Part shown: positions 670-55,897 of the stretch, piece by piece
Layout of the letters: the number at the start of each line of letters is the position of its first letter
Numbering within the stretch: the stretch's first letter is position 1
Assembly: GCA_019704295.1 (NCBI GenBank)
Contig: AP024596.1
Coordinates: forward strand, 608,001 to 672,000
Source of the DNA: Sulfolobales archaeon HS-7
GTDB lineage: Archaea > Thermoproteota > Thermoprotei_A > Sulfolobales > Sulfolobaceae
Reading direction: 5' to 3'
Length of the DNA stretch: 64,000 nt
Notes under the pieces: model-generated
Seen by the model: the letters and a program-made list of their open reading frames with translations, nothing else
Told to the model about the DNA's origin: nothing
Database searches by the model: none
Program-made: the position numbers and the translations under genes

Positions 670-870
670 TTTATCTTCACTGAGGATTAAAGGGAAGCCA
701 TCTGGGAGGATGGGTGTCCCCCTTTGTATAACTTTGACTATCGTTTTGCAGTAGTATATAAATGACGGTAGTCGATGAGATAAGTGTCGTCGCGACCCCT
801 AAGAGAGGGTGGATGCGGTATGCCTCTGATCCAATCGGCGGTCCCCACAATACCATTATGTTAACTCGAC
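670..870 (+). mobile_element. IS200/IS605-derived non-autonomous element (SMN1-like MITE), copy 1, right end missing
   Basis: Begins TTTATCTTCA; its reverse complement aligns by eye with the copies at 10108, 22924 and 49624. Confidence 0.7.
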
Positions 871-1326
871 ACAGTATTAAATGCACGATTAATGTTAATA
901 ACTAAATAAACTAAAAAGTTATAGAATACGACTCTCTAGAATTAAATTCGCTTAATTATAATATAGAAGATAATATAAAATAAGTTTATTAGGAGTAGTT
1001 ACAAGTAATCATATGTTTCTCAAAAATCAAGGCCAAAAAGAGGTTTTCGACTTGATTAGTTCAAAGTTTACAGAGGGAACAATAGGATATTTTTAAGCTT
1101 AGGAAATTAACAAATGAGTTTAATCTCCCGTAATTCACCTATATAATCGCCATAATTATCCGATATATGCCTGGTTATTCCAATATCCTAAAATCTAGTT
1201 TTTAAAGTAAATTACATTTGTTATATTCGACATCATTTCATGTTATCCGATTTTTCGACCTTTTTCCCTTTATAATTTACGCAATAGGTGAATCATTTTT
1301 TCATTATCTTGAGATACCTTCAACGA

Positions 1327-1395
1327 GAAATTCCTAACCGCCTTGAATCTAAAGCTAGGAAAGGGGGACTTTCACCCTATCCTTGTCAAATTAAA
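1327..1395 (-). mobile_element. Short palindromic IS200/IS605 end remnant (PATE-like)
   Basis: Minus strand reads TTTAA-TTTGACAAGGATAGGGTGAAAGTCCCC...CAAGGCGGTTAGGAATTTC, resembling Sulfolobales IS605 ends (from recall). Confidence 0.35.
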
Positions 1396-1406
1396 TTCAA
1401 AAATTC

Positions 1407-1589
1407 CTATATCCACCACCCTGTGACAGACCAACAGCCATATCTTTCATTAAGTTTGACACATTGTGAACTATCCTTATTACATTCCTCACATAGCTTC
1501 TGATACTCCTTGACTGTTTCATTATCACATATTATTTGATTACAAATTCTCACACACTTTCTTCCAGCAATGTATATGTAGCATTCCAT
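1407..1589 (-). CDS. Small cysteine-rich protein
   Basis: MECYIYIAGRKC...CEEC...C...CWSVTGWWI; 8 Cys in 60 aa; start moved to the ATG at 1589. Confidence 0.6.
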   Translation of the reverse strand: MECYIYIAGRKCVRICNQIICDNETVKEYQKLCEECNKDSSQCVKLNERYGCWSVTGWWI

Positions 1590-1699
1590 ATACCTTTTTT
1601 CCCTCAATGATCATTTAAAGCGTTTCTCATAACGGGCAAGCTATGAGATTCCAATTCGTGACCTTAACTATATTGTAAATTTTTTATATGTAATACGTT

Positions 1700-2569
1700 T
1701 TAGAAAAGACGCGATATCATAATAAGGATAAATATTAGAGCTAGATATGGAGAGGATAGTTTGAATGATTCCCACGCTTCCTCTTTAGTCGGATTAATAA
1801 GAAGCTTTACGGAGGAATATATAATTAGCATAGAAAGTATTACGCATCCATACAAGTAGATTATATTTGTGTAAAAATAAAGAGAAAATGCTAAAGGTAG
1901 CATGAGGAAATTGGAAATTGCTATAGCTAGAGCTGAATTCCTCTCAGTAGTAAGCGATGGAAGCATTGGATAGTTGGCGTTAATATAATCCTCTCTCATT
2001 CTTAATGCCAATGACCAGAAATGTCCGGGAGTCCACATGAATATAAGAAGTCCTAGTAAAAACGCTTGAACGGAAAAACTACCTGTTATTGCAGAGAATC
2101 CCGCCCATGCCGCAGCGCTCCCAGCAAATCCCCCTATCACTATATTCCACCAGGTTCTCGGTTTAAGATACATGGTATATAGAAAAACATATATCAGAAC
2201 TCCTAGAGCTATAAAAAGTGCGGTAAGTGGATTTATAAGTAAACCTAAAATAACTCCAACTACTGATTGAATAGCCCCGATTAATATTGAGACATTTGGT
2301 GTAACACTGCCGACAACAGTAGGTCTTTTGGAAGTTCTTTTCATGACCCTGTCCCTATCAACCTCTAGTCCTTCATTAATCATTCCTGCGCCGCCTGACG
2401 CAAGACTCCCTGCTATTAGTAAAAGTACCATAATGATAAGTTGCTTAAGACTAAATGGTAATCTAATCCCAAGGAAAGCACCTGCTAGTGCAGCCAAGTC
2501 AAGCAACACTAATATTCGCGGTTTATTCAGCGTTAAGTAGTCCTTCAATGATATAGTGAGCGTATTCAT
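1700..2569 (-). CDS. cyoE: Protoheme IX farnesyltransferase (heme o synthase)
   Basis: LNKPRI, DRVMKRTSKRP and WTPGHFWSLAL motifs; multi-TM UbiA family. Confidence 0.92.
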   Translation of the reverse strand: MNTLTISLKDYLTLNKPRILVLLDLAALAGAFLGIRLPFSLKQLIIMVLLLIAGSLASGGAGMINEGLEVDRDRVMKRTSKRPTVVGSVTPNVSILIGAIQSVVGVILGLLINPLTALFIALGVLIYVFLYTMYLKPRTWWNIVIGGFAGSAAAWAGFSAITGSFSVQAFLLGLLIFMWTPGHFWSLALRMREDYINANYPMLPSLTTERNSALAIAISNFLMLPLAFSLYFYTNIIYLYGCVILSMLIIYSSVKLLINPTKEEAWESFKLSSPYLALIFILIMISRLF

Positions 2570-2909
2570 ATCGATTTAAATACCTCTACATCAGCGAAAT
2601 TATAAACATTGGTATGAATTTTATTTAACTGTGTTACAAACTAAAGTTAATTCGGAAAAAACCCGCTCGATCTAAGGTAGTTTAGTTAAGCGGTTTCCAA
2701 CCGTGAATTGCTTACGAACCTTAACGTAAAAACTCGATCTGCCAGGAGGACGTATAACAAGGTAAGTTATGAAAACATAAGAGAGCCCTTGTACTCAATT
2801 AAAGAACTCTCCTCTTTTAATTCGTGCTTACGCGTTAACTAAGGCCCTCACATAAATATCATACCATAAATTATAATTACCTCTAATGTAAGGTTACCCA
2901 TGGTGTTTA

Positions 2910-3038
2910 ATGTTGGAGGAAGAGGATTGGGAAGAAGAGGACTTTGAGGAAGAGGATTGGGAAGAAGAGGACTTTGAGGAAGAGGATTGGGAAGAAGAGG
3001 ACTTTGAGGAAGAGGATTGGGAAGAAAACGAATGGTAA
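2910..3038 (+). CDS. 42-aa ultra-acidic repeat peptide (not in ORF track)
   Basis: ATG at 2910 after GGTG SD (2902-2905); MLEEEDWEEEDF...EENEW, then TAA TAA; TATA-like element at ~2868-2876; T-tract at ~3070. Confidence 0.65.
   Translation: MLEEEDWEEEDFEEEDWEEEDFEEEDWEEEDFEEEDWEENEW
2916..3026 (+). repeat. Perfect 30-bp tandem repeat, about 3.7 copies
   Basis: GAGGAAGAGGATTGGGAAGAAGAGGACTTT x3 plus a partial copy; no spacers. Confidence 0.97.
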
Positions 3039-3310
3039 TAATGCCTCATCATACTAAGAAGACATTATCTATTTTTGGAGTAGTTTTACTAGTAAAGTGA
3101 GCTATTCTCATCCTGAATGGTTAGATCAAAAGTAGCTTATCTGAGTTTGAATTATTATAGTAAAATAATCTTGGAATTGATGTAAATAGTGTTCTAGTTA
3201 TTAGAATAAGCTTGTTGGAGTTAAGGGTCTTCAATTGCTTTCCGATAAATATTGTATAGTCTTCTAAAAATCAGACAGTGCAGCTTATTACCTAACGTTT
3301 CTAGCAAGAT

Positions 3311-3610
3311 ATAAATTCACCCCATCTTGGCAAAAGGAGGCTTCCTGTTTCACTGCTCCGCCTTGCGTGTAGTAAAGGGCGGAACTTCACAGGCCGTGAG
3401 GGTCGCCCCAGAAGTGAGCTTAACGTTAGTGTTTCACGCGGAACTGTAGCTGGAGTGTAGGCGTACCACATTTACCCTCACTTAGGTGTCTTGGTAACAT
3501 TCACCTAGCCGAATGCTATCACTGATGTACTGGCCGCGAATTGACTTAAACAGAAGAAGCTATCCATCCCCTCGCATATTCCGCCCTTTTGAACCTCTGA
3601 TAAAGATAAG
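3311..3610 (-). mobile_element. SMN1-like IS200/IS605 MITE, copy 2
   Basis: Shared blocks GCTTCCTG, TTAACGTTAGTGT, AGGCGTACCACAT, GCTATCCATCC and GAACC..GATAAAGATAA. Confidence 0.75.
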
Positions 3611-3719
3611 AAAACTTTATCGATTCTCTACTTAATATTAGATGCAAATATACCTGGTGGTTAATTAATGCCTTACTTTAGAAATAATAGTTTGTCCTTT
3701 AAATTCGGGAGGAATTGAC

Positions 3720-5522
3720 ATGAGATTAGCTGTAGTTAATTTAGATCTGTGTAAGCCTACTAAGTGTAATTACGAGTGTATAAACTTCTGTCCAGTTAAT
3801 AGGTCAGGCACTACTGCAATTGAAGCGCTAAATGAACTCAAGGGAAAACCAAGGATCTATGAGGAGACCTGTATAGGATGCGGTATTTGTGTAAAGAAAT
3901 GTCCCTTTGAGGTTATTTCAATAATAAACCTTCCTGATCAGTACGAGGGAGAAGTAGTCCACCGATATGGTGCAAATGGGTTTAAGCTCTTCGGTCTTCC
4001 GACACCAAAGACTGGAAAAGTTATAGGGATTTTGGGACGAAATGGTTCCGGTAAAACGACAATACTTAAAATACTCAGTGGAGAGATCATGCCTAATTTT
4101 GGCATAGTAGACCAGAATCCGACAATAGACTCTGTCCTAGATAACTTTCGCGGGAAAGAGATCTACGACTACTTCAGGAAGTTATACAATAGAGAATTAA
4201 AGGTAGTTCATAAAATACAGTATGTCGATCTCGTCGGGAAAAGATTATCAGGAAATGTAGCGTCTCTGTTAACCAAAGTGAACGAAAGCGGTAAGTTAGA
4301 TGAGATAAGAGAATTATTGAACATGAATTCCTTTTGGAATAAGGAAGTGAAGACACTAAGTGGGGGAGAGCTTCAGAAACTTCTGATAGCTGCTACTCTA
4401 GCGAGAGAGGCCGACGTATACGTACTCGATGAGCCGTCGTCTTACTTAGATGTAAGGGAGAGACTGAACATGGCTAGAGCAATTTTAACTCTTACGAAGA
4501 ACAAATTCGTTTTATTAGTAGAACATGACCTAGTAGTGTTAGATTACCTATCGGATCTAGTTCACATAGTCTATGGAGAACCGGCTGTTTACGGTAAGGT
4601 ATCCAAGCCATACTCCTCAAGAGTAGGAATAAATTACCTAATAGAGGGATATCTCCCCGCGGAGAACGTAAAGTTTAGGGACGATAAAATAATCTTCGAA
4701 TTAAAAGAGCTTAATGAAGAAAATAAAAAGGGGAAAGAAAAGAGGGTAGAGTGGTCGTCATTAAATGTAATTCTCTCTGGATTTCAACTTAGGGTGGAGG
4801 AAGGATATGCCTTTAGTGGGGAGATTATCGGCATCTTGGGACCTAACGGAATTGGAAAAACGACATTTATGCGTGTTCTAGTCGGAGAAGTAATGCCTTC
4901 CTCGGGATATGTTATAGTGTCAAACCTCACTATGGCGTACAAACCCCAAAAGATAACACCAGAATTTCCAGGGACAGTTAGAGAACTATTAATCGCATCA
5001 AGTGAAGACGCGTTATCCAACTCCTCTTGGTTTTACGTGGAAGTAATAAGGAAATTCGGACTCCACAAACTACTTGACTCTGAAATATCAACACTAAGTG
5101 GGGGAGAGCTTCAGAAACTTCTGATAGCTGCTACTCTAGCGAGAGAGGCCGACGTATACGTACTCGATGAGCCGTCGTCTTACTTAGATGTAGAAGATAG
5201 ATATACAATGGCTAAGGCAGTAAAAAGAGTTACCTTAGAAAGGGGGGCAGTAACCTTCATAGTTGAACACGATATCTCAATTCATGATTACATTGCGGAT
5301 AGGTTAATGGTTTTTACTGGACAACCAGGAATCAATGGTCGTGCGTCATCGCCCCTATCGAGGAAAGTCGGAATGAATAGCTTTCTCAAAGAGATGGATA
5401 TAACCTTTAGAAGAGATCCCGATACTGGTAGACCCAGAGTTAACAAACCAGATAGCTATCTAGATCGGGAGCAAAAGAGAAAGGGAGAGTATTACTTCGT
5501 GGAAAGTAAAGTTCTAGAATGA
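3720..5522 (+). CDS. rli1: Ribosome recycling ATPase ABCE1/Rli1
   Basis: N-terminal 2x[4Fe-4S] Cys motifs, two ABC NBDs, C-terminal RRDPDTGRPRVNK. Confidence 0.96.
   Translation: MRLAVVNLDLCKPTKCNYECINFCPVNRSGTTAIEALNELKGKPRIYEETCIGCGICVKKCPFEVISIINLPDQYEGEVVHRYGANGFKLFGLPTPKTGKVIGILGRNGSGKTTILKILSGEIMPNFGIVDQNPTIDSVLDNFRGKEIYDYFRKLYNRELKVVHKIQYVDLVGKRLSGNVASLLTKVNESGKLDEIRELLNMNSFWNKEVKTLSGGELQKLLIAATLAREADVYVLDEPSSYLDVRERLNMARAILTLTKNKFVLLVEHDLVVLDYLSDLVHIVYGEPAVYGKVSKPYSSRVGINYLIEGYLPAENVKFRDDKIIFELKELNEENKKGKEKRVEWSSLNVILSGFQLRVEEGYAFSGEIIGILGPNGIGKTTFMRVLVGEVMPSSGYVIVSNLTMAYKPQKITPEFPGTVRELLIASSEDALSNSSWFYVEVIRKFGLHKLLDSEISTLSGGELQKLLIAATLAREADVYVLDEPSSYLDVEDRYTMAKAVKRVTLERGAVTFIVEHDISIHDYIADRLMVFTGQPGINGRASSPLSRKVGMNSFLKEMDITFRRDPDTGRPRVNKPDSYLDREQKRKGEYYFVESKVLE
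4353..5192 (+). repeat. 102-bp exact direct repeat inside ABCE1 (4353-4454 and 5091-5192)
   Basis: Identical nucleotides encoding TLSGGELQKLLIAATLAREADVYVLDEPSSYLDV in both NBDs. Confidence 0.95.
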
Positions 5523-6388
5523 TTTTTTATATTATTTATAACTTTGTCTAAATCAACGATCACTCCGGCTCTCCTCGTAGGTATAGACGATAGAACGTCG
5601 TCTGATCGTCCAATCAGGTCGTTAATTTTGCCTAATATTTTCCTGACTTCATTGGCATTTCCTACATCTCCTGAAGGCTTAACGTATTCGACCTTTCTGT
5701 CTGAAATCATGAATGATGGCCAACTTTTTGCAACTTTAGGAAGTACTACAATTCCGTTGTCTCTAAGAAATGCAGGTACTTTAGCCCTAATCCATCCTCT
5801 CAGGGAAAATAAAACTAAAACGTCCCATTGCTCTTTAACTTCTCGGATCTGTCTAATTTCCTTAGGCAATTGAAATGAGGAATCGTCTCTAAACACTGCC
5901 AGATCTCTGACTTTATCTTGTAAATATAACGCAGTTATCGCGGAAAAAAGTCCTGTACCTAATATGAGTACGCTTTTTCCTTCTCCAATTTCTGCTACCT
6001 GTTTTGCAATAGATATGTGTGGAAGAAAGAGGTTATCCTCGTCATTGTTACCGACTACACGTATAACATCTAAAGGAATAGAAGAATATTCGCTCATTAC
6101 ACCATTAGCATCTATTCCTATTCCTCCATAACGCTCAGAATAGGGAAAGATAACTACCTTTTTCCCTATTAATGATTGTTCTACCTGGACCCCAACGTCT
6201 TCGCATACTCCCATACCAATACTTCCTAATATCCTGGACGGCTCTACCCACAGAAATCCTAAGTATATAGCGTTCTCAATACCATCTAATAATACCTTTT
6301 GCGGTTTTACTAATACGTGATCTTTTTCAATAAGCGGATTAGGCAAGTCCATATAAGTGATACCCTGGTTGAATACGACGCCTATTAT
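5492..6388 (-). CDS. Degenerate MDR/alcohol dehydrogenase GroES-like domain protein
   Basis: ILGSIGMG (GHE-like position) and VLILGTG Rossmann motif; frame open upstream to an ATA at 6388 behind a GGTGA SD; first ATG at 6352. Confidence 0.65.
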   Translation of the reverse strand: MIGVVFNQGITYMDLPNPLIEKDHVLVKPQKVLLDGIENAIYLGFLWVEPSRILGSIGMGVCEDVGVQVEQSLIGKKVVIFPYSERYGGIGIDANGVMSEYSSIPLDVIRVVGNNDEDNLFLPHISIAKQVAEIGEGKSVLILGTGLFSAITALYLQDKVRDLAVFRDDSSFQLPKEIRQIREVKEQWDVLVLFSLRGWIRAKVPAFLRDNGIVVLPKVAKSWPSFMISDRKVEYVKPSGDVGNANEVRKILGKINDLIGRSDDVLSSIPTRRAGVIVDLDKVINNIKNHSRTLLSTK

Positions 6389-6447
6389 ACTGTATCACCG
6401 TAATTATTCATATAATAACATAACTGGTTATAAAGATAAGTGATTAA

Positions 6448-6807
6448 ATGAAAATCATTCATAACATAAGCAAAAGCGCCAGGAGTCAAATAATTTCACT
6501 TATGTTAAGGGAGAGGACGGAAAAGGAACTAGCGGAGGCATTGGATATAAGTCCGGCGTCTATCACCAAGTATATTAAGGAAGTTACGCATCCTAGCGAT
6601 AAAATAATAGAAAAGTGCTTAGAAATAGCTAATGACTATGAGGCCGAACAAATAGTTTCAATAATTCTTTCGGATGTGTTTGAGGCCCTTGTCGAATTCC
6701 TGAAAGTAGCCGGTGATAAAATACCTAATGAGGAAGTTAACATCTTAGTAAGTAAAATAAGAAATGCTAAGAGAGACTCAAGACTTCTCCTTAATCAGGT
6801 CTCCTAA
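6448..6807 (+). CDS. XRE/Cro-like HTH protein
   Basis: EKELAEALDISPASITKY...HPS helix-turn-helix. Confidence 0.8.
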   Translation: MKIIHNISKSARSQIISLMLRERTEKELAEALDISPASITKYIKEVTHPSDKIIEKCLEIANDYEAEQIVSIILSDVFEALVEFLKVAGDKIPNEEVNILVSKIRNAKRDSRLLLNQVS

Positions 6808-7986
6808 TATTCTTATTCCCTCTTTTATCTCGTCGGGTGTGGGATAACTAAAGTTCAGCCTCATGGTATTCCTACCACTGTTATCGTAGAAGAAACCAGA
6901 ACCTGGTACATACGCTACTCCTCGTTCTAACGACTCAGCTAATAATTTTCCTGTATCAATTTTGTCACCTACTTTAGCAAATATGAACATACCTCCAACA
7001 GGACGACTCCACTCACAACCTTCAGGGAAGCTTTTTTCTAATTCGTCAAGCATTAGATCTCTCTTTTCTTTGTACATTTTTCTAATTCGTGGCAGATTCT
7101 TCTGTATTACTCCTCTCTTTATCGCTTCAAGTGCAATGTATTGTGTAAAAGTTGAGGAATGAAGGTCAACGCTTTGTTTCATCATTTCCATTTCCTTAAT
7201 AATATCTTCATCTGCAACAACCCATCCCAATCTTAATCCAGGAGACAGGATCTTGCTCATGGTTGACGTATATATTACTCTATTTTCCTCGTCTAGCGAT
7301 TTAATTGACGGAGGTGCCTCACCATCAAATACTACGTGTCCGTAAGCATCGTCCTCTATTATTAAGAAATTATATTTCGAGGCTAATTCAATTAAGTGTT
7401 TTCTCTTTTCCAAGCTCATCGTCACGCCGGCAGGGTTATGAGCCGTAGGTATTGTATAAAGGAATTTAACTCTCTTCCCTTCGTTATATAAGCGTTTTAA
7501 GTTCTCCTCGAGTTCCTCCATATTCATCCCGTCACTTTCTAATGTAATCCCGATAAAGGTAGGATAGTTCAGCCTGAATGAGTTAAGGGCAGCAAGATAC
7601 GTGGGATGTTCTATGATGAGAATGTCGCCAGGATCAAGTAGTAATTGACCTAAAATGTAAATCGATTCTTGGCTTCCGGTAGATACGAAAACGTTTTTAT
7701 AACTTATGCCACGTATTCCTCTTGATACCGAGAAATCGGCTATAGCTTTCCTAAATTCTGTAACACCTGCAGTTGTAGTATATTGGAGGGGTGCATAATC
7801 GTATTTATCTAGAATCTCCGAGGAAATCTGCTTTATATCTTCTGCCGGAAACGTATGTGGATCGGGTAGACCGCCAGCAAAGCTTATAACCTTCCTGCCC
7901 TCAGTAATTTTTAATATATCTCTAATCTCTGAGGCTCTGAGGTGTTTAGTTCTACTTGAGAAAACGTTTTGAAGAACGGTCTTCAT
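6778..7986 (-). CDS. PLP-dependent class I aminotransferase (LysN/Aro8-like)
   Basis: ISFAGGLPD, HNPAG, EDDAY and SKILSPGLRLGW motifs. Confidence 0.9.
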   Translation of the reverse strand: MKTVLQNVFSSRTKHLRASEIRDILKITEGRKVISFAGGLPDPHTFPAEDIKQISSEILDKYDYAPLQYTTTAGVTEFRKAIADFSVSRGIRGISYKNVFVSTGSQESIYILGQLLLDPGDILIIEHPTYLAALNSFRLNYPTFIGITLESDGMNMEELEENLKRLYNEGKRVKFLYTIPTAHNPAGVTMSLEKRKHLIELASKYNFLIIEDDAYGHVVFDGEAPPSIKSLDEENRVIYTSTMSKILSPGLRLGWVVADEDIIKEMEMMKQSVDLHSSTFTQYIALEAIKRGVIQKNLPRIRKMYKEKRDLMLDELEKSFPEGCEWSRPVGGMFIFAKVGDKIDTGKLLAESLERGVAYVPGSGFFYDNSGRNTMRLNFSYPTPDEIKEGIRILGDLIKEKS

Positions 7987-10034: not shown

Positions 10035-10107
10035 CTCCGACCCCCGGCTAACTTTTTGTTTCAATCCCATATCCTAACGTAAACTCTACCTAGTCATAAC
10101 GGAGAGG

Positions 10108-10397
10108 TTTTACCACGTCAAGGTAAGGATTTCCTGCTTCACACCTCCACTTTGCCCAGGGGACTCCTTAGGCATTAAGGGTAGCACCGACTTCGAGTTA
10201 ACATGATGGCGTTCTGAGGACCGTTGATTAGAGACGAGGCGTACCGCAGTGACCCCCGCTTAGGCGTCCCGATTACGCTTACTCCATCAATGAGTATGAT
10301 TGATATGTTGCCTGCGAACCAATATTTAAACTAATACGAAAAGGGTCATCCATCCTCAAAGGTCTTCAGCCCACTTAACCCCCTATTAAAATATAAA
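10108..10397 (-). mobile_element. SMN1-like IS200/IS605 MITE, copy 3
   Basis: Shared blocks TTCCTGCTTCAC, GAGGCGTACC, ACGCTTACTCCATCAATGA and TGCGAACC.ATATTTAAAC; ends ATAAA. Confidence 0.75.
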
Positions 10398-14948: not shown

Positions 14949-15626
14949 GGTTTTTGATAGAGTGTAAAATTTATCTTATTTCATCACAAATTTCATATGA
15001 TGTTGAGACCTAGAGAAGTGTGAAAGTGTCTAGGCACTCCATACTCCGCCTCTAGCACAACTATGGGAAAGGTTAGTCCAGAAACTTACATGTATCAACG
15101 TCGTAGACCTTGACGCTCTTACCCTAGGACAACTTGGACCTCTTTAGACCAAACCATTGTAGGGAATAATTATCCTCACGGCTAGTGCTACATGTTTTCC
15201 TCGAGGAAGTAGCTATACAGTCTTGAGAAAGGAATTGGGTTAAAGATGAGCAGAATAAGGTCGTTCGTATAGAGGAGTATTCAAAGTGTGTTGAAGTACA
15301 AGGCTCCTCTTTACGCTCCTTCAAGAAGAAGGTAAATCCTCGTCCAACCTCTGAGTCCTCCCGCTGTGGACGACTTTCCCCAATTGTCGGCGGGAATTTT
15401 AAGTGTGAGAGTTACAAATTCACTTTAGATAGACAACTAAACTCTTCCATAAACATATAGATCAAGATGTGTGGGTTTCCCCACGTCCCTGAACACCTCG
15501 GACGTGGGTCGGGGGGTTATCCTGCTGAAGGGATGGAGGAACGGGGCAATCCCCCGTAACTTCGGTAAAGTCCAAGGGCAGAGGATTAGATATAAATTCA
15601 TGAAAATTTTATGAAGCCAAAACCCC
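14949..15626 (+). mobile_element. Internally deleted IS607-family element
   Basis: 5' MLRPREV.. serine-resolvase start plus decayed tnpB 3' end (LDRQLN..KMCGFPHVP); both ends align with the copy at 55909-57801. Confidence 0.8.
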
Positions 15627-22923: not shown

Positions 22924-23233
22924 ATGAACTCACCCCCTTTTGTAAAAGGGGCTTCCTGCTTCACAGCTGCACCTTGCCAGTACTAAAGAACTGAGCTCCT
23001 CAGACTCTGAGGACCGCACCTCGAAGTTAACGTTAGTGTTTAACATGGCACCGCTGATTGGAGGAGAGGTGTGTCACATCGACCCTTTCTCAGGAGGTTA
23101 AGTGACGCTTACTCTGTCGATGATTGTCGTTGATATATTAGGCTGCGAACCGATACTCCAAACTAAATCAAAGAGGGCTATCCATCCTCGCGGATGAGGG
23201 TCTTCCACCCCTCTAATCCCCGATGAAGATAAA
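22924..23233 (-). mobile_element. SMN1-like IS200/IS605 MITE, copy 4 (best-preserved right end)
   Basis: Right-end hairpin CCCCTTTT-GT-AAAAGGGG with minus-strand end GTGAGTTCAT; left end TTTAT-CTTCATCGGGG. Confidence 0.8.
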
Positions 23234-28876: not shown

Positions 28877-31299
28877 TACCTCACGAGGTTAAAGCAAGGT
28901 ACATAGTCGACCTTGTAGCCTGAAAACGCCTAGAGGAGGTTGACGAACTGGTCAAACGCTAGGGGCTTTTCTCCTAGTGGCTTAAAGTTAAACGAGAGGA
29001 AGAGGTAAAAGTTCCACGCAGTGTCTAGGAGCGCGTAGATCAGGTAGAGGTGTTTGCATAACCTCCTGATGAGTTCTATCCTTGCTTTCCTCGTCTTGAA
29101 CCCTTCCTCTACGCCTCGACCTGTAGGTCTTGGCTAACTCGTAGGGATCTTCCTTGATGTTGGTCACGAAAACGAAGTGCGTTAGTTTCCCCTTATGTTT
29201 CACGTAAATCACGTCGTAATAGTCCCTCGTACTCTAGCCTTCTATAAGCAACGTAAGTTCTATCCTTAACCGTGTGGTATTTCACGGTAAGGGGCTGAGT
29301 AAAGAGTTGATTAACTCCTTTCAGGTAGCTCTTCCCTCTGATCACGGTTTTAGCGGGTAACTCCTTGAGGATCTCGAGATTGAGGAATCCAGCGTCGGCT
29401 ATGACCTAACTCAAGTTGATATACTGTACAGGCTTGTTGACGAAATCTTGAAGAAACTCGGAGGGCTTTTGATCCCCTAGAACTGCGAATTGGGTAACCA
29501 CGTTACACCTGACGGGAGACAAGAGATCTGCAGATCTAACCTTTTCCGAGAAGAGTTTGTCCTCTACCCCCTTCTCAGCTTCCTTCTCTCCCACCGTCAA
29601 GAAGGTCCTGTCGAATCCCAGCACGGTCTCAGAGAAGATCGAGCCCAGTTCCCAGAACTCAAAGGTTTTACCCAAGAGGCGCTACACGCTTCGCCTCTAA
29701 CATAGCTACGGAAACAGCGTGTTCAAAACACTACTTACGTTAACGTCGTAGTCCTTGACGTTCTTAGCCTTGATCAACTTCGACCTCTTTGTAACTAAAC
29801 CCCTGTACACGCGATCCACTAGAACGTGGTAGGTTATGCTGGCGAGCTTCCCCGCGAGCGCACAAGTTACCTCAACACTACTTTTTTAGTGATGAGCCTC
29901 TCGTAGAAATCCGCAAAAGGTCCACGCCTAGCTATCCTAGCGGACAAGTAAAATGCCCTTCGCAAGTACTTGTTACCCTCTATCCACGTGGGACTTGCTA
30001 TTTCCGCTCTGCTTAGTCCTTGGGGCACGCGTAAGCTCTCGCAGCCTTGGAACTTAGAAAACGAGAGACGTCGCCGAACTCATCGTAGATCGTCGCAGCG
30101 GTTTAACTCCGGGGATCTTGGAGAGCTCTACAACTTCTTGCGGGATTTTCGAAAGTATTGCTTTCTCGACGCCATCATGTCCTTTAGTTGCTTTAACAGC
30201 TCCACAAGCTGTTCAAGCTAGCCTCTCGGCTCGATTCAGTGTTCTCCCCAACTTCTCGCCTAACTCCCTCTTGTCCTTCTGCTTCAACTCTCCCTTGGAC
30301 AGCTTCTCAAGCAGTTCCCCTCTCGTTGAACGGCTCTAACTTATACCGAGCGGTCTCTAGAATTTTCCTTATCTCGTCACTTGCGCCTCTTTCTCCACAA
30401 GGCTCGTCTCGCACCTCGTTAGCTCCCTTATCTCCCCGTCAGGTATGAACCTTTGACTACTCCCGTCATGAAGGCCATTACAAGCCTTTGCGCGTCCAGT
30501 CCGTCTTCTTCCCGAGTATTTCGGACAAATGTAGGGTTAACTACCGTTACCTTGAATCCTCTCTGAGTTTCTCGTGCAGGTAGTAGAAGGGCCTGTAGCC
30601 TCCATTATTCCCTCCCTGTAATCGCTAAGGAATTTCACGAGCTCCTCTATCCCCTCGTTGTCGTTTTTGATTCCCTCCTTGATTGAATACGGATTTCCCT
30701 TGTTCCACTAGAAGTTCTCCCTTTGCCACAGTTAACTCTCGGATATGTCTATCGCGAAGCCCTTGGTAACGACTTCCATGGTGTATCTTGCTCACTCGTG
30801 AAATATTACCTTAACTAGTGTAATACCGTCTCCCTCGTTTCATAGCACCAGCTACCGTCAACCCCTAGAGAAACTTGTTACAACCTCGGGGGTTCTATCC
30901 CCTCTTGTGTTCTAGAGACATCACAGCCAGCCTCTTCTACGGGGTTTTCCCTCCATTGGGTCGGGCTTACCTTGTTTTCTCCTTGTCGCCTTACATGCTT
31001 AACTCACGTAATACTTGTTTTATCTCCATAACTAGTGGTACGCGTTTTCCCCGTGGAAGTTCCCCCTAACTTTTCCCTTGTCTTACAAGGGATATGTTCC
31101 CTTCCTCTATCCCCAAGAGGAGGGATTTACTCCTCTTGATAATGTCACGGGGTTAGAGAAAATCTTCTTAAACGCTTCCTCTGCTATTAGCGAAGGACTT
31201 GCCCTTTGCTAGTTTGGTTTTCCTCATATCAAGGCTTGGGAAGTCCCTCGCTTAAACTTTAACGTCCTCATTTCTACCCGCTTGATAACATACGAGGTA
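28877..31299 (-). mobile_element. Decayed DDE transposon (IS4/ISH3-like) interrupted by IS110
   Basis: N-terminal fragments at 31250-31005 and the remainder at 29630-28930 (GFDRT, ADAGF, VTN...LA..Y..R...EEGFK); imperfect TACCTC.. terminal inverted repeats. Confidence 0.65.
29675..31000 (-). mobile_element. IS110-family element, transposase pseudogene
   Basis: ATG at 30779, AIDIS, KKTD..DAQRL and GNKYLRRAFYL..FYERL with many frameshifts; about 220 bp of non-coding left end; boundaries approximate. Confidence 0.8.
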
Positions 31300-48398: not shown

Positions 48399-49265
48399 AT
48401 GGAAAGGTATTCGAGGCAGATTCTTGCGATAGGAGTAGACATTCAGGAGAAAATACAGAGGAGCAGGGTTGCTGTAATAGGAATAGGAGCTCTGGGTTCA
48501 AGGGTCTCAGAAATACTTACTCGAATGGGCGTGAAAAGATTAAGGTTCGTAGATCCCGATATAGTTGAGATATCGAACCTCCACAGGGTTTCTCTGTTTG
48601 ATGAAAGCGACATAGGAATGCCAAAAGTAATAGCAGCGACTAAGCATCTCGAGAAAATAAATAGCGAAGTTACTTTTGAACCCATTGTTGATACAGTAGA
48701 TAATATAAGCTGGAGGGAACTGCTGAAAGGAATTGATGTAATAATTGACGGTCTCGACAATGATTTAAGCCGTTCCTTTCTGAATTACGCCTCTGTACAT
48801 TTGGGGATACCGTATATATACGGGGCAGTAACCGGCGAATATGGAAACGCTATGTTAATATTACCAGGAAAAACTCCTTGTTTAGCTTGTTTTATGAAAG
48901 TTAGTTCGACCAATAACGCATGTGAGGTAATCGGCGTTTCTCCGCCAATAGTCGAAACTATTGCAGCTTTAGAGGTCCAACTCTTTTTAAATCTCTTGAG
49001 GGGGATTGAGGAGTCGGAGCTTCTGTACGTCGACTTATCCAATATGTCTTTAGATAAGATAAAAATCAAAAGAAATGATAAGTGCAGCGTATGCTCATTG
49101 GGGAAAGAACCCAGTATAAACGGGAATCCTTGTGGTGTAGAGAGAGTGAAGCAGTATGATGGAGAACTAACGTTTTCAAACGAATACATAAACGTCTATA
49201 ATTCAGAAAAAGGAGTTTATCTTGTGTATAAGGATAAAATATTCCTTAAGAAGAGAGTATCCTAG
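48399..49265 (+). CDS. ThiF/MoeB E1-like enzyme
   Basis: RYSRQ, GIGALG, SNLHR and two CxxC motifs. Confidence 0.9.
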   Translation: MERYSRQILAIGVDIQEKIQRSRVAVIGIGALGSRVSEILTRMGVKRLRFVDPDIVEISNLHRVSLFDESDIGMPKVIAATKHLEKINSEVTFEPIVDTVDNISWRELLKGIDVIIDGLDNDLSRSFLNYASVHLGIPYIYGAVTGEYGNAMLILPGKTPCLACFMKVSSTNNACEVIGVSPPIVETIAALEVQLFLNLLRGIEESELLYVDLSNMSLDKIKIKRNDKCSVCSLGKEPSINGNPCGVERVKQYDGELTFSNEYINVYNSEKGVYLVYKDKIFLKKRVS

Positions 49266-49369
49266 CGATTTCCTGAATTTTACGTAACTAGTGTCTACAG
49301 ACGCTAAAATAAGCTCTTTGTAATTGAGTGTCCTCAATTCCTTCTTATTTATCCTTTACAACCTCCTTA

Positions 49370-49580
49370 AACTCGGGAAACGCCGCTCTTATTACCTTCC
49401 ACGGGGAAACACGTAGTACTAGGGATGAGGATAGCAAGTCTACACAATGGATTAGTGCTAAGAAGTCGAAGTTGCCCAAGGCTAATAACGTCAAGGACTA
49501 TTACGTCTATGTAGGTAGCGTTCTGAACTCACTCTTACCACGGCTGTGTTAGAGGCGAAGTGGTGCCTCTACTATCACTC
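49370..49580 (+). mobile_element. IS110 right-end remnant
   Basis: Aligns with the reverse complement of 29675-29860 (GTCGAAGTTG..CAAGGCTAA.AACGTCAAGGACTA...TGTTAGAGGCGAAG). Confidence 0.75.
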
Positions 49581-49623
49581 CCACCCTTTTGGGAGTAGCA
49601 ATATCCATGTAAGTTATCTCTTT

Positions 49624-49922
49624 GCGAACTTACCCTTTTTTGGCAGAATAAGCTTCCTGCCTCACAGCTCTTCCCCCCAGAGGTCACCATAGGCACTAAT
49701 GGTCGTACCGACCCCAAAGTGAACTTAACGTTAGTGTCCCACATAGGACTGTTATTGGAGCAGAGGCGTACCACATCAACCCTCGCTTAGACGTCTTGAT
49801 GACGCTTACTCCATCAATGACTGCTATTGATATCTTGATGCGAACCGATATTTAAACTGACACAAACGGGCTATCCACCCTCGTGGGTCTTCCGCCCCCT
49901 TTTGAACCCCTATCAAGATAAA
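49624..49922 (-). mobile_element. SMN1-like IS200/IS605 MITE, copy 5
   Basis: Full-length; TTTAT left end, internal TTTAAATA box, right end GGGTAAGTTCGC. Confidence 0.8.
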
Positions 49923-50017
49923 AAATCGCTAATAAGCAATCCTACTGCGTGAAAAGTACTTATCTAGTAAATGCCTAATCCCAATAATGTTTTAAATACA
50001 GGATTAGAAGTCTAGTT

Positions 50018-50530
50018 ATGCCATTACGACCGGGAAGATGTTACAGAAAGTTTTCGGGACCAGCGTATACTAGGAAGGAATATATTCCAGGAGTTCCCAT
50101 GCCTAAAATATCCAAGTTTACTATGGGAGATCCCAACAAGGACTACGATTACGAGGTGTCACTCGTCCTTACTCAAGTAGGACAGATAAGACATAACGCA
50201 CTAGAAGCGTCAAGAGTTATCGCGCATAAAACCATGAGTACTAGAGTGGGAAACGAAACCGATTTCTTCATGACCGTAAATAAATATCCTCACCATGTTA
50301 TAAGGGAGAACAAAATGATGGCTTTCGCGGGAGCAGATAGATTACAAGATGGAATGAGACTGTCTTTCGGAAAGCCAATAGGTACCGCAGTCAGAGTTTA
50401 TACACAAGGTGAAGTGTTGATGAAGTTCTACGTTAAAAAACAGCACCTCACGTTTGCTAGAGAGGCCTTTGATATAGCCTCAAAGAAGCTTCCACTGAGA
50501 ACGAGAGTAGAGGTAAAGCCACTAAAATGA
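50018..50530 (+). CDS. rpl10e: 50S ribosomal protein L10e/uL16
   Basis: RPGRCYR and [16 protein letters not shown] motifs. Confidence 0.97.
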
Positions 50531-51525
50531 GTTTTGACTTCGATTTAGATGGAGTATTGGAGTCGGTAAAAAAGCACGGAGCTAAAAGGGTTTTACTTCA
50601 ATTTCCAGATGGGTTAAAGCCATTCTCTACGGAAATTGTAAATAAACTTGAGGAAAGACTTCCTGGTGTAGAATTCGTAATTTCTGGCGAACATAGCTAC
50701 GGTTCATGTGATATAGCTGAAGACGAGGCAGAACTGGTGTCGGCAGATCTAATCATACATTTTGGTCATTCCCCTTATACCTGGTACTTCCCCAAGTTTC
50801 CTACCACGTTTATTGAGGTAAAAGCTGACTTCAAGATGAGCGAGGACCTGATTAACTCCCTCCTCTCGTACATAGATAAGTACTCAGCTAAGAGTGTATC
50901 TATATCATCTACATTACAATACGCTAACGTAATACAAGAGTTGAGGAGGAGGTTAGAGGAAAAGGTTAAAGTTTACGTAGGGAAGCCGTCGATCCCTGTT
51001 ATGAAGGATGGACAAATTTTAGGATGCGATCTGAAGGCAGTTAATATTAATGCCGACTTAAATGTCCATGTTTCTGGAGGGATGTTCCATGCACTCGGTG
51101 TGGGATTAGCCACAGGGAAGCCAACAGTAAAAGTTGATCCCGATTTAAACAAAGTCCAGGATATATCCCCTGAAGTCTATAGAGTATTGAAAATAAGATA
51201 TGCGAAGGTAATGGAGGCCATGTATGCATCGAACTGGATTATAGTACAGGGATTGAAAGTGGGACAGAACAGACCCTATATGGTGAAATATTTAAAGAGG
51301 GGATTAGAGAGTAAGAACAGAAAAGTTTACATTATTACATCTAAATTGTTGACTAAGGACGTATTAAGGAACGTTGATAGGAGTTACATTGATGCGTATG
51401 TCGTAACCAGCTGCCCACGAATACCTACAGACGACTTATATGATTTTGAAAAACCCGTTCTAACTCCAGGAGAGGCAAAAATGATTATTAATGAGAAACT
51501 CGATACCTATATATTTCCGTGGTGA
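50527..51525 (+). CDS. dph2: Diphthamide biosynthesis protein Dph2
   Basis: LQFPDGL, YGSCD, GQILGC and CPR (three Fe-S Cys). Confidence 0.93.
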
Positions 51526-51527
51526 AA

Positions 51528-52109
51528 ATGGCAGATAACGAGATAGTTCTGCCTTCTCAAAGGCTTGCAACAGAAGAGGAGTTCATGCCTGGAGATAATA
51601 CCTACGTTATCAACGGAGAAGTCAGAGCATCACAAGTCGGTAAGGCATTCTTCGACATGATAAACAGGAAAGTAAACGTAATATCTCCTAAGAAAAGTGG
51701 TGTTATACTACTAAAAAATGCTAAGACAGCTACGGGGGAAGTTGTTGAAGTAAGGGATGACATGGCATACGTCGAGATCTTTATGTTAGACGAGAAGGAG
51801 ATATCAGGGACAATATCTGCAATTCTCCCCTTCGCTTATACTAAGGAAAAGGGGATAGAGAGCATAAAGGAAGCTGTAAGAATAGGTGATATAATTAGGG
51901 GAAAACCCCTTAACAAAAACATTCCGGTAATACTTACCATTAAACAGAAGGAATTTGGCGTTATATTCGCCAGGTGCTCAATTTGCGGCACGGTCTTGCT
52001 AAGGGAGGAAAATGTTCTTAAATGTGGAAACTGCGGTAATATAGAGAAGAGAAAGCTAGGAGTCTATATGGTGAAGAGGAATGGAACTAAAAGTCAGAGA
52101 AAGGAGTAA
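51528..52109 (+). CDS. csl4: Exosome subunit Csl4
   Basis: EEFMPG, S1 domain, C-terminal Zn ribbon with EKRK. Confidence 0.9.
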   Translation: MADNEIVLPSQRLATEEEFMPGDNTYVINGEVRASQVGKAFFDMINRKVNVISPKKSGVILLKNAKTATGEVVEVRDDMAYVEIFMLDEKEISGTISAILPFAYTKEKGIESIKEAVRIGDIIRGKPLNKNIPVILTIKQKEFGVIFARCSICGTVLLREENVLKCGNCGNIEKRKLGVYMVKRNGTKSQRKE

Positions 52110-52383
52110 TACGACGTTAGTGGTTGAAATAGAGGGGGAAGAACACACATTAGGAAACTTACTGGTAAAGCAACTGGGAAGGGAATCTCATGTGAAGGTT
52201 GCATCGTATTATAAGGAACACCCGCTTACAGATTCTATAGTATTGAGGATCGAAACTGACGGTCAGGTAACTCCTGAGGAGGCAATTAAGAACGTGATAG
52301 GGAAAATAATGGCCCTATCGGAGAGATTTGAGGAAGAGGTAAAAAATGGGACAGAAAAGGGGAAGAGTAGGCGTAAAGGTTGA
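52081..52383 (+). CDS. rpoL: RNA polymerase subunit Rpo11 (L)
   Basis: GEEHTLGNLL...HPL motif. Confidence 0.93.
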   Translation: MELKVRERSNTTLVVEIEGEEHTLGNLLVKQLGRESHVKVASYYKEHPLTDSIVLRIETDGQVTPEEAIKNVIGKIMALSERFEEEVKNGTEKGKSRRKG

Positions 52384-52594
52384 GGTAAACGGTATATACT
52401 TTTTATGCGTATTCAGAGAAGGCGTTTTAGAGCACATATTTATAGGGGAGGATAAACTGGGCAAAGTAAGGGAAGAGATTACTTATTCCAACTTCGGTGT
52501 TGGGCTTCAATATTCTGGGGAATTAATTCACGAATGCGAAAGGCTCGGAGAGATGATTAGCGTAAAGCTAAAAAAGCTTGCTGAAGATAAGTAG
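52346..52594 (+). CDS. Hypothetical protein
   Basis: Operonic ORF between rpoL and tfs. Confidence 0.6.
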   Translation: MGQKRGRVGVKVEVNGIYFLCVFREGVLEHIFIGEDKLGKVREEITYSNFGVGLQYSGELIHECERLGEMISVKLKKLAEDK

Positions 52595-52605
52595 AGGGTA
52601 TTGCT

Positions 52606-52932
52606 ATGAAGTTCTGTCCAAAGTGTAACTCAATGCTCCTTCCAAGGAAAGTAAACGGCGTGTCCAAGTTAGTATGTTCAAAATGCGGATATGAGGAGGA
52701 ATCTGCGGAAAAAACTACCCTAAAGACTACAGTAAAGCATACAGTTCACGATAAAACCCTCGTCATCGAAGAAGAAACTGCTAGCGCTCAAAGGATAAAG
52801 GGGGTGGTCTGTCCTAATTGTAAAAACGATGAGGCTTATTTTTGGATGCTCCAAACTAGAAGTGCAGATGAGCCCGCAACAAGATTTTACAGATGCGTAA
52901 AGTGTAATAAGGTTTGGAGAGAGTACGAATAG
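52606..52932 (+). CDS. tfs: Transcription factor S
   Basis: Two Zn ribbons and QTRSADEP. Confidence 0.95.
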   Translation: MKFCPKCNSMLLPRKVNGVSKLVCSKCGYEEESAEKTTLKTTVKHTVHDKTLVIEEETASAQRIKGVVCPNCKNDEAYFWMLQTRSADEPATRFYRCVKCNKVWREYE

Positions 52933-52976
52933 CGATTTTGAAGGATCAATATATATATTCTCTGACGGTAATAAAA

Positions 52977-53741
52977 ATGGAGAAATTCTTGGTAAGCAGT
53001 GCTGAAAGGGAAGCTAAGGAAAACCTCATAGCGTTAATAGCAAAAGGAGTAGATAGGATCTGCTTTCAAAGGGATAGCACGGACTCAATAATTTTCGCGA
53101 TGAACGTTGCCAAGGAGGCGAAAGCAATAACGATTCTTTCCAATAACTATGACGAAAGATGTGAGGTTTCTGTAAAAAGGGGTGACAGTAACGTCATGAA
53201 ATTAAGGGAGAGAGTCTTCTCTCTTGGTAAAACCTCGTTCTCTTCGATTCTACCTATAACCGAATCTAATACACCTACAATATTGCTAGGTATTACATCA
53301 TCTGTCATTGAGGAGAAAAGGGTACCTACAGCCTGGGAGGAAAGCGTAATGTCCTCTGTAGCAGGGAATGGGATAAACTACGAGAAGTCTCCTCCATTAA
53401 TTTCGTATAGGACGATGAACATTGAAACTTCCTTAAAACTATCATCCTACTTATTCAAGGATGCCAACAAAGTAAAAAACAGGTTAATTGAGGAAAACGT
53501 TAATCTAAAGCAGAAGTACACAGAGTTAACCGATGAGTTAACTATAAGAATTGACGAGATATTAAGGGAAGAAATTACCATGTACGTTCCGGAGAAATCG
53601 GCGTATTACTTTGATGTAGATATCAGGGAGGTTTTCTTCGCAATACGAAACAAGTTTAACGCGTTACTGGAATTTTGTTGGAACCCTCAATACATGTATA
53701 AAGTAATAGCGGATTACAGAAGGGATATACATTTAGTCTAA
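52977..53741 (+). CDS. Probable degenerate RecJ/Cdc45-like (RecJdbh) protein
   Basis: EKR.PT.WE..V......GI..EK...L.SYR......SL.LS resembles Sulfolobales Cdc45 from recall; no DHH motif. Confidence 0.5.
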   Translation: MEKFLVSSAEREAKENLIALIAKGVDRICFQRDSTDSIIFAMNVAKEAKAITILSNNYDERCEVSVKRGDSNVMKLRERVFSLGKTSFSSILPITESNTPTILLGITSSVIEEKRVPTAWEESVMSSVAGNGINYEKSPPLISYRTMNIETSLKLSSYLFKDANKVKNRLIEENVNLKQKYTELTDELTIRIDEILREEITMYVPEKSAYYFDVDIREVFFAIRNKFNALLEFCWNPQYMYKVIADYRRDIHLV

Positions 53742-53789
53742 GATAGGCTAACAGAAAACGAAACCCTTATAAGTTTTCAAAAGAAATGG

Positions 53790-54593
53790 ATGCGAATAAT
53801 GAGAGTTATAGTATTAGGCAATATCCCAGAGCTTCTGATAGATAAGGTTTTGGACACCGGAGCAACGTTGTTCCATAAGGGAAATTACGTGCCATTCATC
53901 AGAAGAAATCAATTCGATAAAATAGCGATACTCTTTGAGAAAAGGTTTATAAGAGGAGCATATAACCTGGCAAAGAAGATCAGTGAGGTATACGCCCTTT
54001 CTTACCCAGAACTCGGGGACAGCATAGAACTTGTAGGTGCTTTAAGGGAAAACGGGGTAAAGGCTGGCATACTATGGTATGGAAAGGCCAGCATTGAGGA
54101 GAGGAGTATTCCCTTAGTTTTCTCGAAAAAGGTAAGAGTAGCTGTCATCAGACCAGACGAACCTGATCTACTGGGGTGGGTTATAGAGGATAGTGATAAT
54201 TTCGTCATAGATTACCTGGAAAATTATGAGGAGGGAAATTACGATTTAGTTGGATGCTTAGATTGCACCGCCTGCTTTCCCACCTTCGACTCTAGATTAG
54301 TGGCTTTAGCGGCCATTTTGAATATAAAATGCACTGCAGTAACGGTAAGTGATGTTAGGGAAAACGACATTATATTGAACATACCCTGTGAAAGGAAATT
54401 CAATGAAAGAGTAGTGTCGTTAGTAAGGCCAAATAAGTGGTTTAGTAGATTTCAGATAGTTGAGGGAAAAATAGAGGGACGTACTCTTCACCTTTCCAAT
54501 GGAGCTGGGGCCATCCTGGAAAGACCTTTGGGAAAGGCATTTCTACTCTATGAGATGGATGCTTCTTCATTAATGGAGGAAATATACAAGTGA
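53790..54593 (+). CDS. Hypothetical protein
   Basis: Long ORF with typical codon usage; CLDCTAC motif. Confidence 0.65.
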   Translation: MRIMRVIVLGNIPELLIDKVLDTGATLFHKGNYVPFIRRNQFDKIAILFEKRFIRGAYNLAKKISEVYALSYPELGDSIELVGALRENGVKAGILWYGKASIEERSIPLVFSKKVRVAVIRPDEPDLLGWVIEDSDNFVIDYLENYEEGNYDLVGCLDCTACFPTFDSRLVALAAILNIKCTAVTVSDVRENDIILNIPCERKFNERVVSLVRPNKWFSRFQIVEGKIEGRTLHLSNGAGAILERPLGKAFLLYEMDASSLMEEIYK

Positions 54594-54638
54594 AAACTGA
54601 GATCGCCTTAATATACTCAGTTTCTCAGACTATTAATC

Positions 54639-54977
54639 ATGGCAAGAGTTGTTGATATAGCACATTTCGATAAAGATGGTAATCTAACGTCTCTAAAGAT
54701 AGACGACATAGAACCCATGGCCGGAGAGAAGGGATTCGCTCAAGAAGGGGGTTTCTTTGTTACAGTTAAGGGAAAAGAGGGAAGGGCTGTGATAAAAATA
54801 TCCGATAAAGAGGCGATAGACATGGCAAACAGGATAATCGAGGCCTACAGGGAACACGTGAAAAACTTCATAGAATTGTCTAAGAGAAGACAGCCCCTAA
54901 CCCAGGAAAGGAGAAGAAAAGATGAAGATGAGGAGATTATGGACGAATTAGATGAAGAGGATTTCGGATCAAAGTGA
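54639..54977 (+). CDS. Hypothetical protein with basic then acidic C-terminal tail
   Basis: ORF translationally coupled to nep1. Confidence 0.7.
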   Translation: MARVVDIAHFDKDGNLTSLKIDDIEPMAGEKGFAQEGGFFVTVKGKEGRAVIKISDKEAIDMANRIIEAYREHVKNFIELSKRRQPLTQERRRKDEDEEIMDELDEEDFGSK

Positions 54978-55558
54978 GGATTGTACTACTCGATTCCGGT
55001 TTGGAATTAGTTCCTCCAGAAATGAATTATAAAGGGAATTCTTTACTTGACATTAACTACCATTATAGATCAATGAAGAGATTAAGGGACTGGTATAAGC
55101 GCGGAAGACCTGATATAGTTCACTTCTCCTTACTTCAACTACTATCTTGGCCTACATTCTCTGGGGAAATTTACGTGCATACATTCGACGGAAAAGTGAT
55201 CTACGTGGATAGGAAAACGCGAATACCTAAATCACAGGCCAGGTTTAACTCACTAATTGTACAGCTCCTTAAATACGGAAAAGTTCCCACGAAAGGTGAA
55301 CCTCTCATGGTAGTTACTTCCTACAGATTGAATGACGTAATTAATCAGCCTTTTTTACTATTTGATGAGAGGGGAGATTTAACATTTAATAGCGAACTCT
55401 GCGGTAATGTATCGGTAGGAATAGGGGCTTTTCAGAGAGGTGAATTCTCAGACGAAGTACTCTCAATACCGCATAAGAAAATTTCAGTCTCGAAGTCTAA
55501 AATCGAAACTTTCCAAGTAGTGTGTAATATATTACAGAAATGCTTTCCATTAGAGTGA
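54974..55558 (+). CDS. nep1: 16S rRNA pseudouridine methyltransferase Nep1
   Basis: LLD.NYH, RGRPDIVH, RIPK...RF and IGAF..G motifs. Confidence 0.9.
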   Translation: MRIVLLDSGLELVPPEMNYKGNSLLDINYHYRSMKRLRDWYKRGRPDIVHFSLLQLLSWPTFSGEIYVHTFDGKVIYVDRKTRIPKSQARFNSLIVQLLKYGKVPTKGEPLMVVTSYRLNDVINQPFLLFDERGDLTFNSELCGNVSVGIGAFQRGEFSDEVLSIPHKKISVSKSKIETFQVVCNILQKCFPLE

Positions 55559-55683
55559 CGTAAGTGGTTTCGAAGAACAGGAGATAAGAAGTCAATTGTA
55601 AATTAAGTCGATAGCACTCCAGCCTTTAGGGGAATATGTCATTTTTATACCTCTTTTGAATCCTAAGCATCACAGTACTTTTC

Positions 55684-55897
55684 TTTATCTTAATGCGGGA
55701 TCGGGAGAGAAAGACCTACGTGGACAGGTGGTCCACTCAATGAGTTCATGCAGAACTGTTAATGAGGGGTACTTACGGGGTCACTAAGACGTCTGAGAGA
55801 GTTGATGTGTTAAGCCTGGCTTCAATCAACTATCCTCAAGACACCATATCATCACGTTAGCGCTCAGGGTTAAAACGACCCTTAATGCCTGTGGAGC
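55684..55897 (+). mobile_element. SMN1-like IS200/IS605 MITE, copy 6, cut off at the IS607
   Basis: TTTATCTT start; AAGACGTCT, GTTGATGTG and ACGACCCTTAATGCCT blocks shared with other copies. Confidence 0.6.

Follow-up and report, generated by a model that had tools for sequence, protein, structure and literature searches.

Six related elements in the window

The window analysed here is a stretch of 64,000 nucleotides (nt), positions 608001-672000 of the single-contig, 2.15-Mb genome of a Sulfolobaceae archaeon (Sulfolobales archaeon HS-7), and it contains six short intergenic elements that are related to one another. We refer to these as mini-elements and name the copies c1 to c6 in window order. 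A first-pass annotation had described them as mobile IS200/IS605-type units, each combining a promoter with the omegaRNA scaffold of TnpB and able to supply different guides in trans to a TnpB encoded elsewhere. All six sequences were inspected on the strands given below and were then aligned. The mean column identity in this alignment is 61%, and a repeat search recovers the six copies at 64-80% identity, which bears out their homology, with the ends of c1, c3, and c6 now refined. Further copies were sought with nhmmer, using one profile built from the six window copies (profile 1) and another built from 30 full-length copies (profile 2), each at a cutoff of E<1e-3, and with a covariance model, R1, of the core plus tail of the mini-elements.

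A full copy spans ~300-320 nt directly 3' of a TTTAT motif and consists of a left end of ~95 nt, a core of ~105 nt, and a right tail of ~90-125 nt. This layout is seen in c5 (49624-49922, minus strand), a full-length member of subfamily A. Its TTTAT lies at 49918-49922, the left end runs down to ~49831 and includes the TATA box TTTAAATA at 49849-49856, the core occupies ~49716-49830, and the right tail (49624-49715) closes with AAGTTCGC (nhmmer E 7e-83; covariance model, 188.5 bits). Also of subfamily A and full length is c4 (22924-23233, minus strand; TTTAT at 23229-23233), which has a degenerate TATA box, TTTGGAGTAT, and the terminus GAGTTCAT (E 3e-76; 188 bits); the right-end hairpin that had been pointed out earlier is present in this copy as CCCCTTTT-AC-AAAAGGGG. 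The third full-length member of the subfamily, c2 (3311-3610, minus strand), is preceded by CTTAT (3606-3610), has its TATA region deleted, and ends in GAATTTAT (profile positions 6-323, E 2e-63; 171 bits). The remaining full-length copy, c3 (10079-10397, minus strand; TTTAT at 10393-10397), represents a subfamily with a long right end, in which an additional hairpin stands ahead of the terminus, and carries a perfect TTTAAATA at ~10323-10330. Its true terminus, GAGTTTAC, lies at 10079-10086, 29 nt past the previously noted end at 10108, and the covariance model matches 10079-10320 with 117 bits. The hairpin ATCAAT-N7-ATTGAT, reported from the outset, is found in c3 and c5, and the division into two sub-lineages, c2/c4/c5 and c1/c3, is real.

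Two copies are truncated on the 3' side. In c1 (670-884, plus strand), TTTAT at 670-674 is followed by the left end and the family-specific core, and the right-end tail and terminus are missing; the nhmmer match (657-867, E 4e-37) covers profile positions 8-224, and that of the covariance model covers model positions 12-148 only. The diverged c6 (55684-55898, plus strand) likewise has TTTAT (55684-55688), the left end, and the core. Its match reaches profile positions 15-256 (E 3e-19), hence no right end, and covariance model R1 does not match it at E<=0.001. Directly after c6 lies a degenerate IS607-type element (55899-57850) with a remnant of the serine-recombinase N terminus at 56095-56262, tnpB pieces at 56498-57085 and 57122-57340, and a zinc-ribbon match at 57478-57630 that contains an in-frame TGA. 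That this element splits c6 was considered and rejected, as the weak profile match beyond it (E 6.6) looks like the IS607-type element's own right end.

Genome-wide, 34 of 60 left ends have an exact TTTAT, and most of the others are one base off (TTTAA, CTTAT, ATTAT); the right-hand terminus is (A)GTTCAC or differs from it by one base. Both the left-end motif (TTTAT, or CTTAT once in the window) and the GTTCAY-like terminus of the first-pass annotation are therefore confirmed well beyond the six copies. Its statement that there is no target duplication and no conserved open reading frame (ORF) holds too: the right flanks are unrelated among copies, the aligned copies have no ORF in common, and elements of 300-320 nt are too short to code. 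Nor are there inverted terminal repeats, as the two ends, CTTCATTGGGGG... and ...GGTGAGTTCAC, differ. Instead, subterminal hairpins are found at both ends, AAAGGGGG...CCCCCTTT on the left and CCTTCTGCCAAGAAGG on the right. The limits of the element can be read from the only near-identical pair of copies, 706898-707212 (minus strand) and 707971-708288 (plus strand), which are 97% identical, inverted, and ~760 bp apart within a cluster of three family members at contig positions 706718-708288, outside the window. The two are alike exactly from TTTAT to GAGTTCA and stand in otherwise unrelated DNA, and the limits of their identity therefore fix the element boundaries.

Element ends common to tnpB and tnpA elements

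Both ends of the mini-elements are homologous to the ends of tnpB and tnpA+tnpB elements. The left end (~95-105 nt, profile positions 13-117) is common to tnpB elements and takes in a large subterminal hairpin as well as the tnpB TATA region. The right tail, which carries a conserved GAAGCAGGAAG, a subterminal hairpin, and the terminus (A)GTTCAC, is homologous to the last part of tnpB elements. In the intact tnpB element at contig positions 1019717-1021061, profile positions 13-117 lie upstream of the tnpB start and positions 221-320 form the 3' end of the element. At five or more loci in the genome, tnpB is bracketed by matches to positions 13-117 and 221-321, and the same two parts flank its single tnpA+tnpB element (~1.73 kb) as well as tnpA+tnpB elements from other genera. 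Compared with the tail of the intact tnpB element, whose tnpB frame runs to a TGA inside GGTGAGTTCA, those of c2, c4, and c5 show 82-84% identity (82% for c5, 84% for c4). With both ends matching tnpB-bearing elements of the same genome, the earlier assignment to non-autonomous elements of IS200/IS605 type is well founded.

The TnpB zinc-ribbon family has 16 matches in the genome, of which three fall in long open frames; there is one Y1 transposase gene (tnpA, at about 1660385-1660789 of the contig). The three long TnpB ORFs (409, 414, and 380 amino acids) all have PF01385 and PF07282, so a TnpB encoded elsewhere, as the first-pass annotation supposed, does exist. The 409-amino-acid TnpB (contig positions 1019825-1021054) matches the ISDra2 TnpB structures 8bf8/8exa (E 6e-27) and keeps the RuvC motifs DVG, MEDIN, and DRDYNA. 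In this protein, the tail homology starts just past a conserved NILRR, and the mini-elements therefore share the part that lies downstream of the TnpB core.

As judged by this homology, the tail of the mini-elements is the 3' part of a TnpB omegaRNA scaffold. Scaffold homology is confined to the last 90-125 nt, and the proposed likeness to tnpB 3' ends accordingly applies to this stretch and not to the ~105-nt core upstream. The same distinction bears on the idea of a promoter-plus-scaffold unit, of which the 3' omegaRNA part is supported and the rest is weakened, the core having no detectable similarity to tnpB and the TATA box being kept in only a third of copies. As to the supply of different guides in trans, c2 to c5 retain the tail, while c1 and c6, without a right end, cannot capture a guide.

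Other repeats and remnants were noted as well. A second dispersed repeat family, of ~117 nt and with a GAGGCG...CGCCTC hairpin, is represented in the window at 29689-29800 (plus strand) and 49474-49590 (minus strand), the two being 82% identical, and has ~30 genome-wide BLAST matches at 68-88% identity. One copy lies 34 nt past the right end of c5, and another (contig 1021180-1021296) is found ~120 nt past that of the intact tnpB element. An isolated tnpB zinc-ribbon remnant at 15326-15492 (PF07282 at 15326-15457) is 71% identical to 57533-57665. Beside c2, at 2913-3046, there is a tandem 15-nt repeat of at least six units that would encode an acidic stretch of EEEDW/EEEDF type. Lastly, a 129-nt direct repeat (4353-4481 and 5091-5219; 91% identity) is an internal duplication within a coding gene, the 600-amino-acid ORF at 3720-5522.

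Family size, RNA structure, and guides

At the cutoff given above, the six-copy profile finds 78 matches in the genome and the 30-copy profile finds 100; the covariance model finds 60. The family makes up ~1% of the genome, and many of its copies are truncated fragments. In a tree of 44 long copies, the branching is star-like and the terminal branches are long; the median pairwise identity is 58%. Complete stand-alone copies are also present in four genomes from three other genera of the same family. A blastn search of plasmid and phage collections gave no match to the mini-elements; in an Rfam scan of the window, only one tRNA reaches the gathering score, and for c5 at E<=10 Rfam returns nothing beyond a chance match to sR15. 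The mini-elements are an old, high-copy family, and elements of this kind have already been described.

The TATA box noted in the first-pass annotation is present at both positions given there, but it is not a general feature. Among window copies, a good box is found only in c3 and c5, both perfect, and genome-wide 10 of 33 full copies have TTTAAATA, with one mismatch allowed, at the corresponding position. A start ~25 nt downstream of the box would yield an RNA of ~200 nt up to the terminus. Predicted folds range from -46 to -73 kcal/mol for 193-236 nt.

Covariance model R1 was adopted in place of plain alignments, since indels shift the hairpins and structure scans of such alignments failed: RNAalifold on a plain MAFFT alignment of 33 copies found no structure, and a crude column-pair scan returned only G/U-rich noise. 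For 16 copies of subfamily A, RNAalifold gives a nine-helix fold. Within this set of 16, however, pairing and covariation equal those of column shuffles (82.9% versus 82.1% paired; 39/500 and 162/500), and the copies therefore change independently on the two sides of each pair. Some 17-20% of pair cells are broken, and G-U for G-C exchanges are many. A candidate pseudoknot between core and tail (CUGCU with AGCAG) was dropped, as no covariation was seen by eye on the alignment.

The 16 nt past each right end, where a guide would be taken from the flank, match exactly nowhere else in the genome next to a TTTAT-type motif; one apparent second target proved to be an artefact of a copy with a mislocated end. 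Guides without a second target are what is expected of homing-type guides, and this argues against a guide set directed at other loci.

Explanations and comparison with known systems

Taken together, the copies are very probably an old, high-copy, non-autonomous IS200/IS605 family of the palindrome-associated transposable element (PATE) type, most members of which appear to be decaying. A Y1 TnpA provided in trans, for which the one intact tnpA of the genome is a candidate, would mobilise the copies in single-stranded form. Those that keep a TATA box (c5 and c3) may be transcribed from ~25 nt downstream of it into the ~200-nt RNA, which would run on through the tail into flanking DNA and so form an omegaRNA-like guide. 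A TnpB encoded elsewhere could then use this guide to cut the empty site again (homing). After insertion, most of today's copies appear to decay rather than persist as working guide genes, as judged from the star-like tree, the lack of excess pairing in subfamily A, and the presence of a TATA box in only 10 of 33 full copies. The interpretation offered by the first-pass annotation is thereby partly supported; it is not demonstrated that the scaffold is complete, the promoter general, or the copies maintained by selection.

Several observations weigh against this explanation, most of them concerning the core, which is present between left end and tail in mini-elements only. A search with nhmmer --max at E 10 finds no match to the core in tnpB/tnpA loci of the genome or its relatives, and when aligned locally with the 140 nt that precede the tail in each of eight tnpB elements it scores as dinucleotide shuffles do (mean z 0.19). 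A simple internal-deletion origin was rejected on these two results: as the core is absent from all full-length elements examined, the mini-element is not a simple internal-deletion derivative, and the decaying PATE-type family that we favour does not account for where the core came from. The core is also the best-conserved stretch (majority-base fraction of 0.81-0.84 versus 0.67-0.77 elsewhere) and is kept across genera, which fits some constraint on the source lineages that our explanation does not name. In addition, the pair of copies at 706898 and 707971 is the sole sign of recent activity or duplication.

Covariation across lineages points in the same direction. In an alignment of 47 distinct copies, which includes other subfamilies, other genera, and three tnpB elements and which is biased towards the structure because it was fitted to it, all helix groups and measures exceed 500 shuffles. 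The signal peaks in the terminal hairpin, where each of the nine pairs has double changes (e.g., UA:18/GC:11 and CG:16/UA:15), and is weaker in the core hairpins and long-range helices. This could mean selection for RNA structure, but it is suggestive only, since the alignment was fitted to the structure and the sequences in it are related. The covariation that had been named as a check on the omegaRNA idea is thus seen across lineages on this fitted alignment and not within subfamily A. The simplest reading is that structure was selected for in the source lineages, whereas single copies decay once they have inserted; at least the terminal hairpin is required both by TnpA, in DNA form, and by TnpB, in RNA form.

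Alternatively, the copies could be maintained, working stand-alone omegaRNA genes, each with a promoter, a complete scaffold, and a different guide for a TnpB acting in trans, the core being a non-coding replacement for the half of the scaffold that tnpB elements embed in their coding sequence. The ~200 nt from TATA box to terminus fit the ~176-nt right-end RNA (reRNA) of Sulfolobus islandicus TnpB7 (PMC11043419), no other part is as well conserved as the core, which other genera also retain, covariation at the family level exceeds shuffles, intact TnpB genes are at hand, and the many G-U for G-C exchanges fit pairing on the element strand. We nevertheless consider this doubtful. The core is unlike tnpB 3' coding sequence, two-thirds of the full copies are without the box (it is kept in 10 of 33), and the main subfamily has no compensatory signal. 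Long terminal branches, the share of broken pair cells (~17-20%), the loss of the tail from c1 and c6, guides for which the genome offers no second target next to a TTTAT motif, and the fitting of the covariation alignment to the structure tell against it as well. A bolder version, in which core plus tail make up a streamlined non-coding omegaRNA gene with its own promoter that spreads as a mini-transposon across Sulfolobaceae, a guide-only parasite of TnpB and TnpA, strikes us as improbable. If it were true, the RNAs would load onto a TnpB encoded elsewhere and either promote homing of the mini-element or rival the guide of the parent element, and the core would represent a novel 5' module of the scaffold that arose without having to code.

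Two further explanations fare far worse. The intergenic position, the conserved core, and the low-energy folds (-46 to -73 kcal/mol for 193-236 nt) would also suit structured non-coding RNA genes, for example a family of regulatory small RNAs, that are unrelated to transposition and merely resemble transposon ends. This is already disfavoured and, in our estimate, most improbable, given that both ends are homologous to tnpB/tnpA element ends, that a fixed TTTAT precedes each copy and the boundaries are sharp, that truncated fragments are many, that Rfam gives no match, and that the 20-45% divergence among copies is not what paralogous functional RNA genes show. It is just as hard to credit that the host has taken over the guides, either for RNA-guided regulation in the manner of TldR or as a guide array against other loci or invaders. 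Exapted relatives of TnpB that act as RNA-guided regulators are known (PMC10705468), and the copies adjoin gene ends; yet the 16-nt right flanks lack any other exact genomic match beside a TTTAT-type motif, plasmid and phage collections yield no match, the TnpB genes keep their nuclease motifs, and the copies are decayed.

For the decaying, PATE-type family that we prefer, the present value lies mainly in annotation: ~100 non-coding repeats are explained, their boundaries and target motif are fixed, and the mini-elements are flagged as a source of false "novel RNA" calls. If the better-preserved copies (c5 and c3) are transcribed and loaded onto TnpB, there would be dozens of natural guide-only loci, which would allow a test of whether TnpB is used in trans by gene-less IS200/IS605 elements, as has been proposed, and would define the needed parts of a thermophilic archaeal omegaRNA scaffold free of coding constraint. 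The trans-guide idea itself is not new, as gene-less IS200/IS605 elements (PATEs) of Geobacillus are reported often to encode omegaRNAs, which a TnpB would have to use in trans (Meers et al. 2023 preprint, 10.1101/2023.03.14.532601).

Among characterised TnpB systems, the closest points of comparison are the reRNAs of TnpB7 and ISDra2 TnpB, in which, as proposed for the mini-elements, the scaffold terminates with TTCAC at the right end, the guide comes from the flank, and the target-adjacent motif (TAM) is the insertion motif. TnpB7, an IS605-type TnpB of S. islandicus, has the TAM TTTAA and the element end TTCAC, and its ~176-nt reRNA includes 113 nt of coding sequence and 38 nt of the right end, with a scaffold of ~150 nt (PMC11043419). 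The insertion motif is thus TTTAA in TnpB7 and TTTAT in the mini-elements. Furthermore, whereas 113 nt of the TnpB7 scaffold lie within the tnpB coding sequence, the mini-elements have at this place a non-coding core that has no detectable similarity to tnpB and whose function is a prediction.

Gene-less elements of this kind have also been reported from Sulfolobus and Acidianus. SMN1 has been summarised as a 320-bp non-autonomous element of S. islandicus mobilised by ISC1733 (PMC3718332); going by description only, it resembles the mini-elements in size, host family, and an IS605-type parent with tnpA and tnpB, and ISC1733 and the tnpA+tnpB element of the present genome are both ~1.73 kb. In Acidianus hospitalis, orfB-derived repeats resembling miniature inverted-repeat transposable elements have one end that equals the downstream end of orfB (tnpB), and such repeats are said to occur also in other Sulfolobus and crenarchaeal genomes (PMC3119797). 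Described before TnpB was known to be RNA-guided, they can be likened to the mini-elements, again by description, in their orfB-type end, in their ~10 or more copies, and in the lack of proof of mobility.

The best fit is with PATEs, gene-less IS200/IS605 derivatives first defined in Haloquadratum (PMC3119063). At the level of sequence, every feature by which PATEs are recognised is found in the mini-elements. Both lack inverted terminal repeats, carry subterminal hairpins at both ends, cause no target duplication, follow a short conserved motif on the 5' side of the target, and are too short to code; both share their ends with tnpB/tnpA elements and occur as heterogeneous copies, many of them truncated. 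Unlike PATEs, the mini-elements have a ~105-nt core that is absent from their parents, reside in Sulfolobaceae, and are delimited by TTTAT ... (A)GTTCAC.

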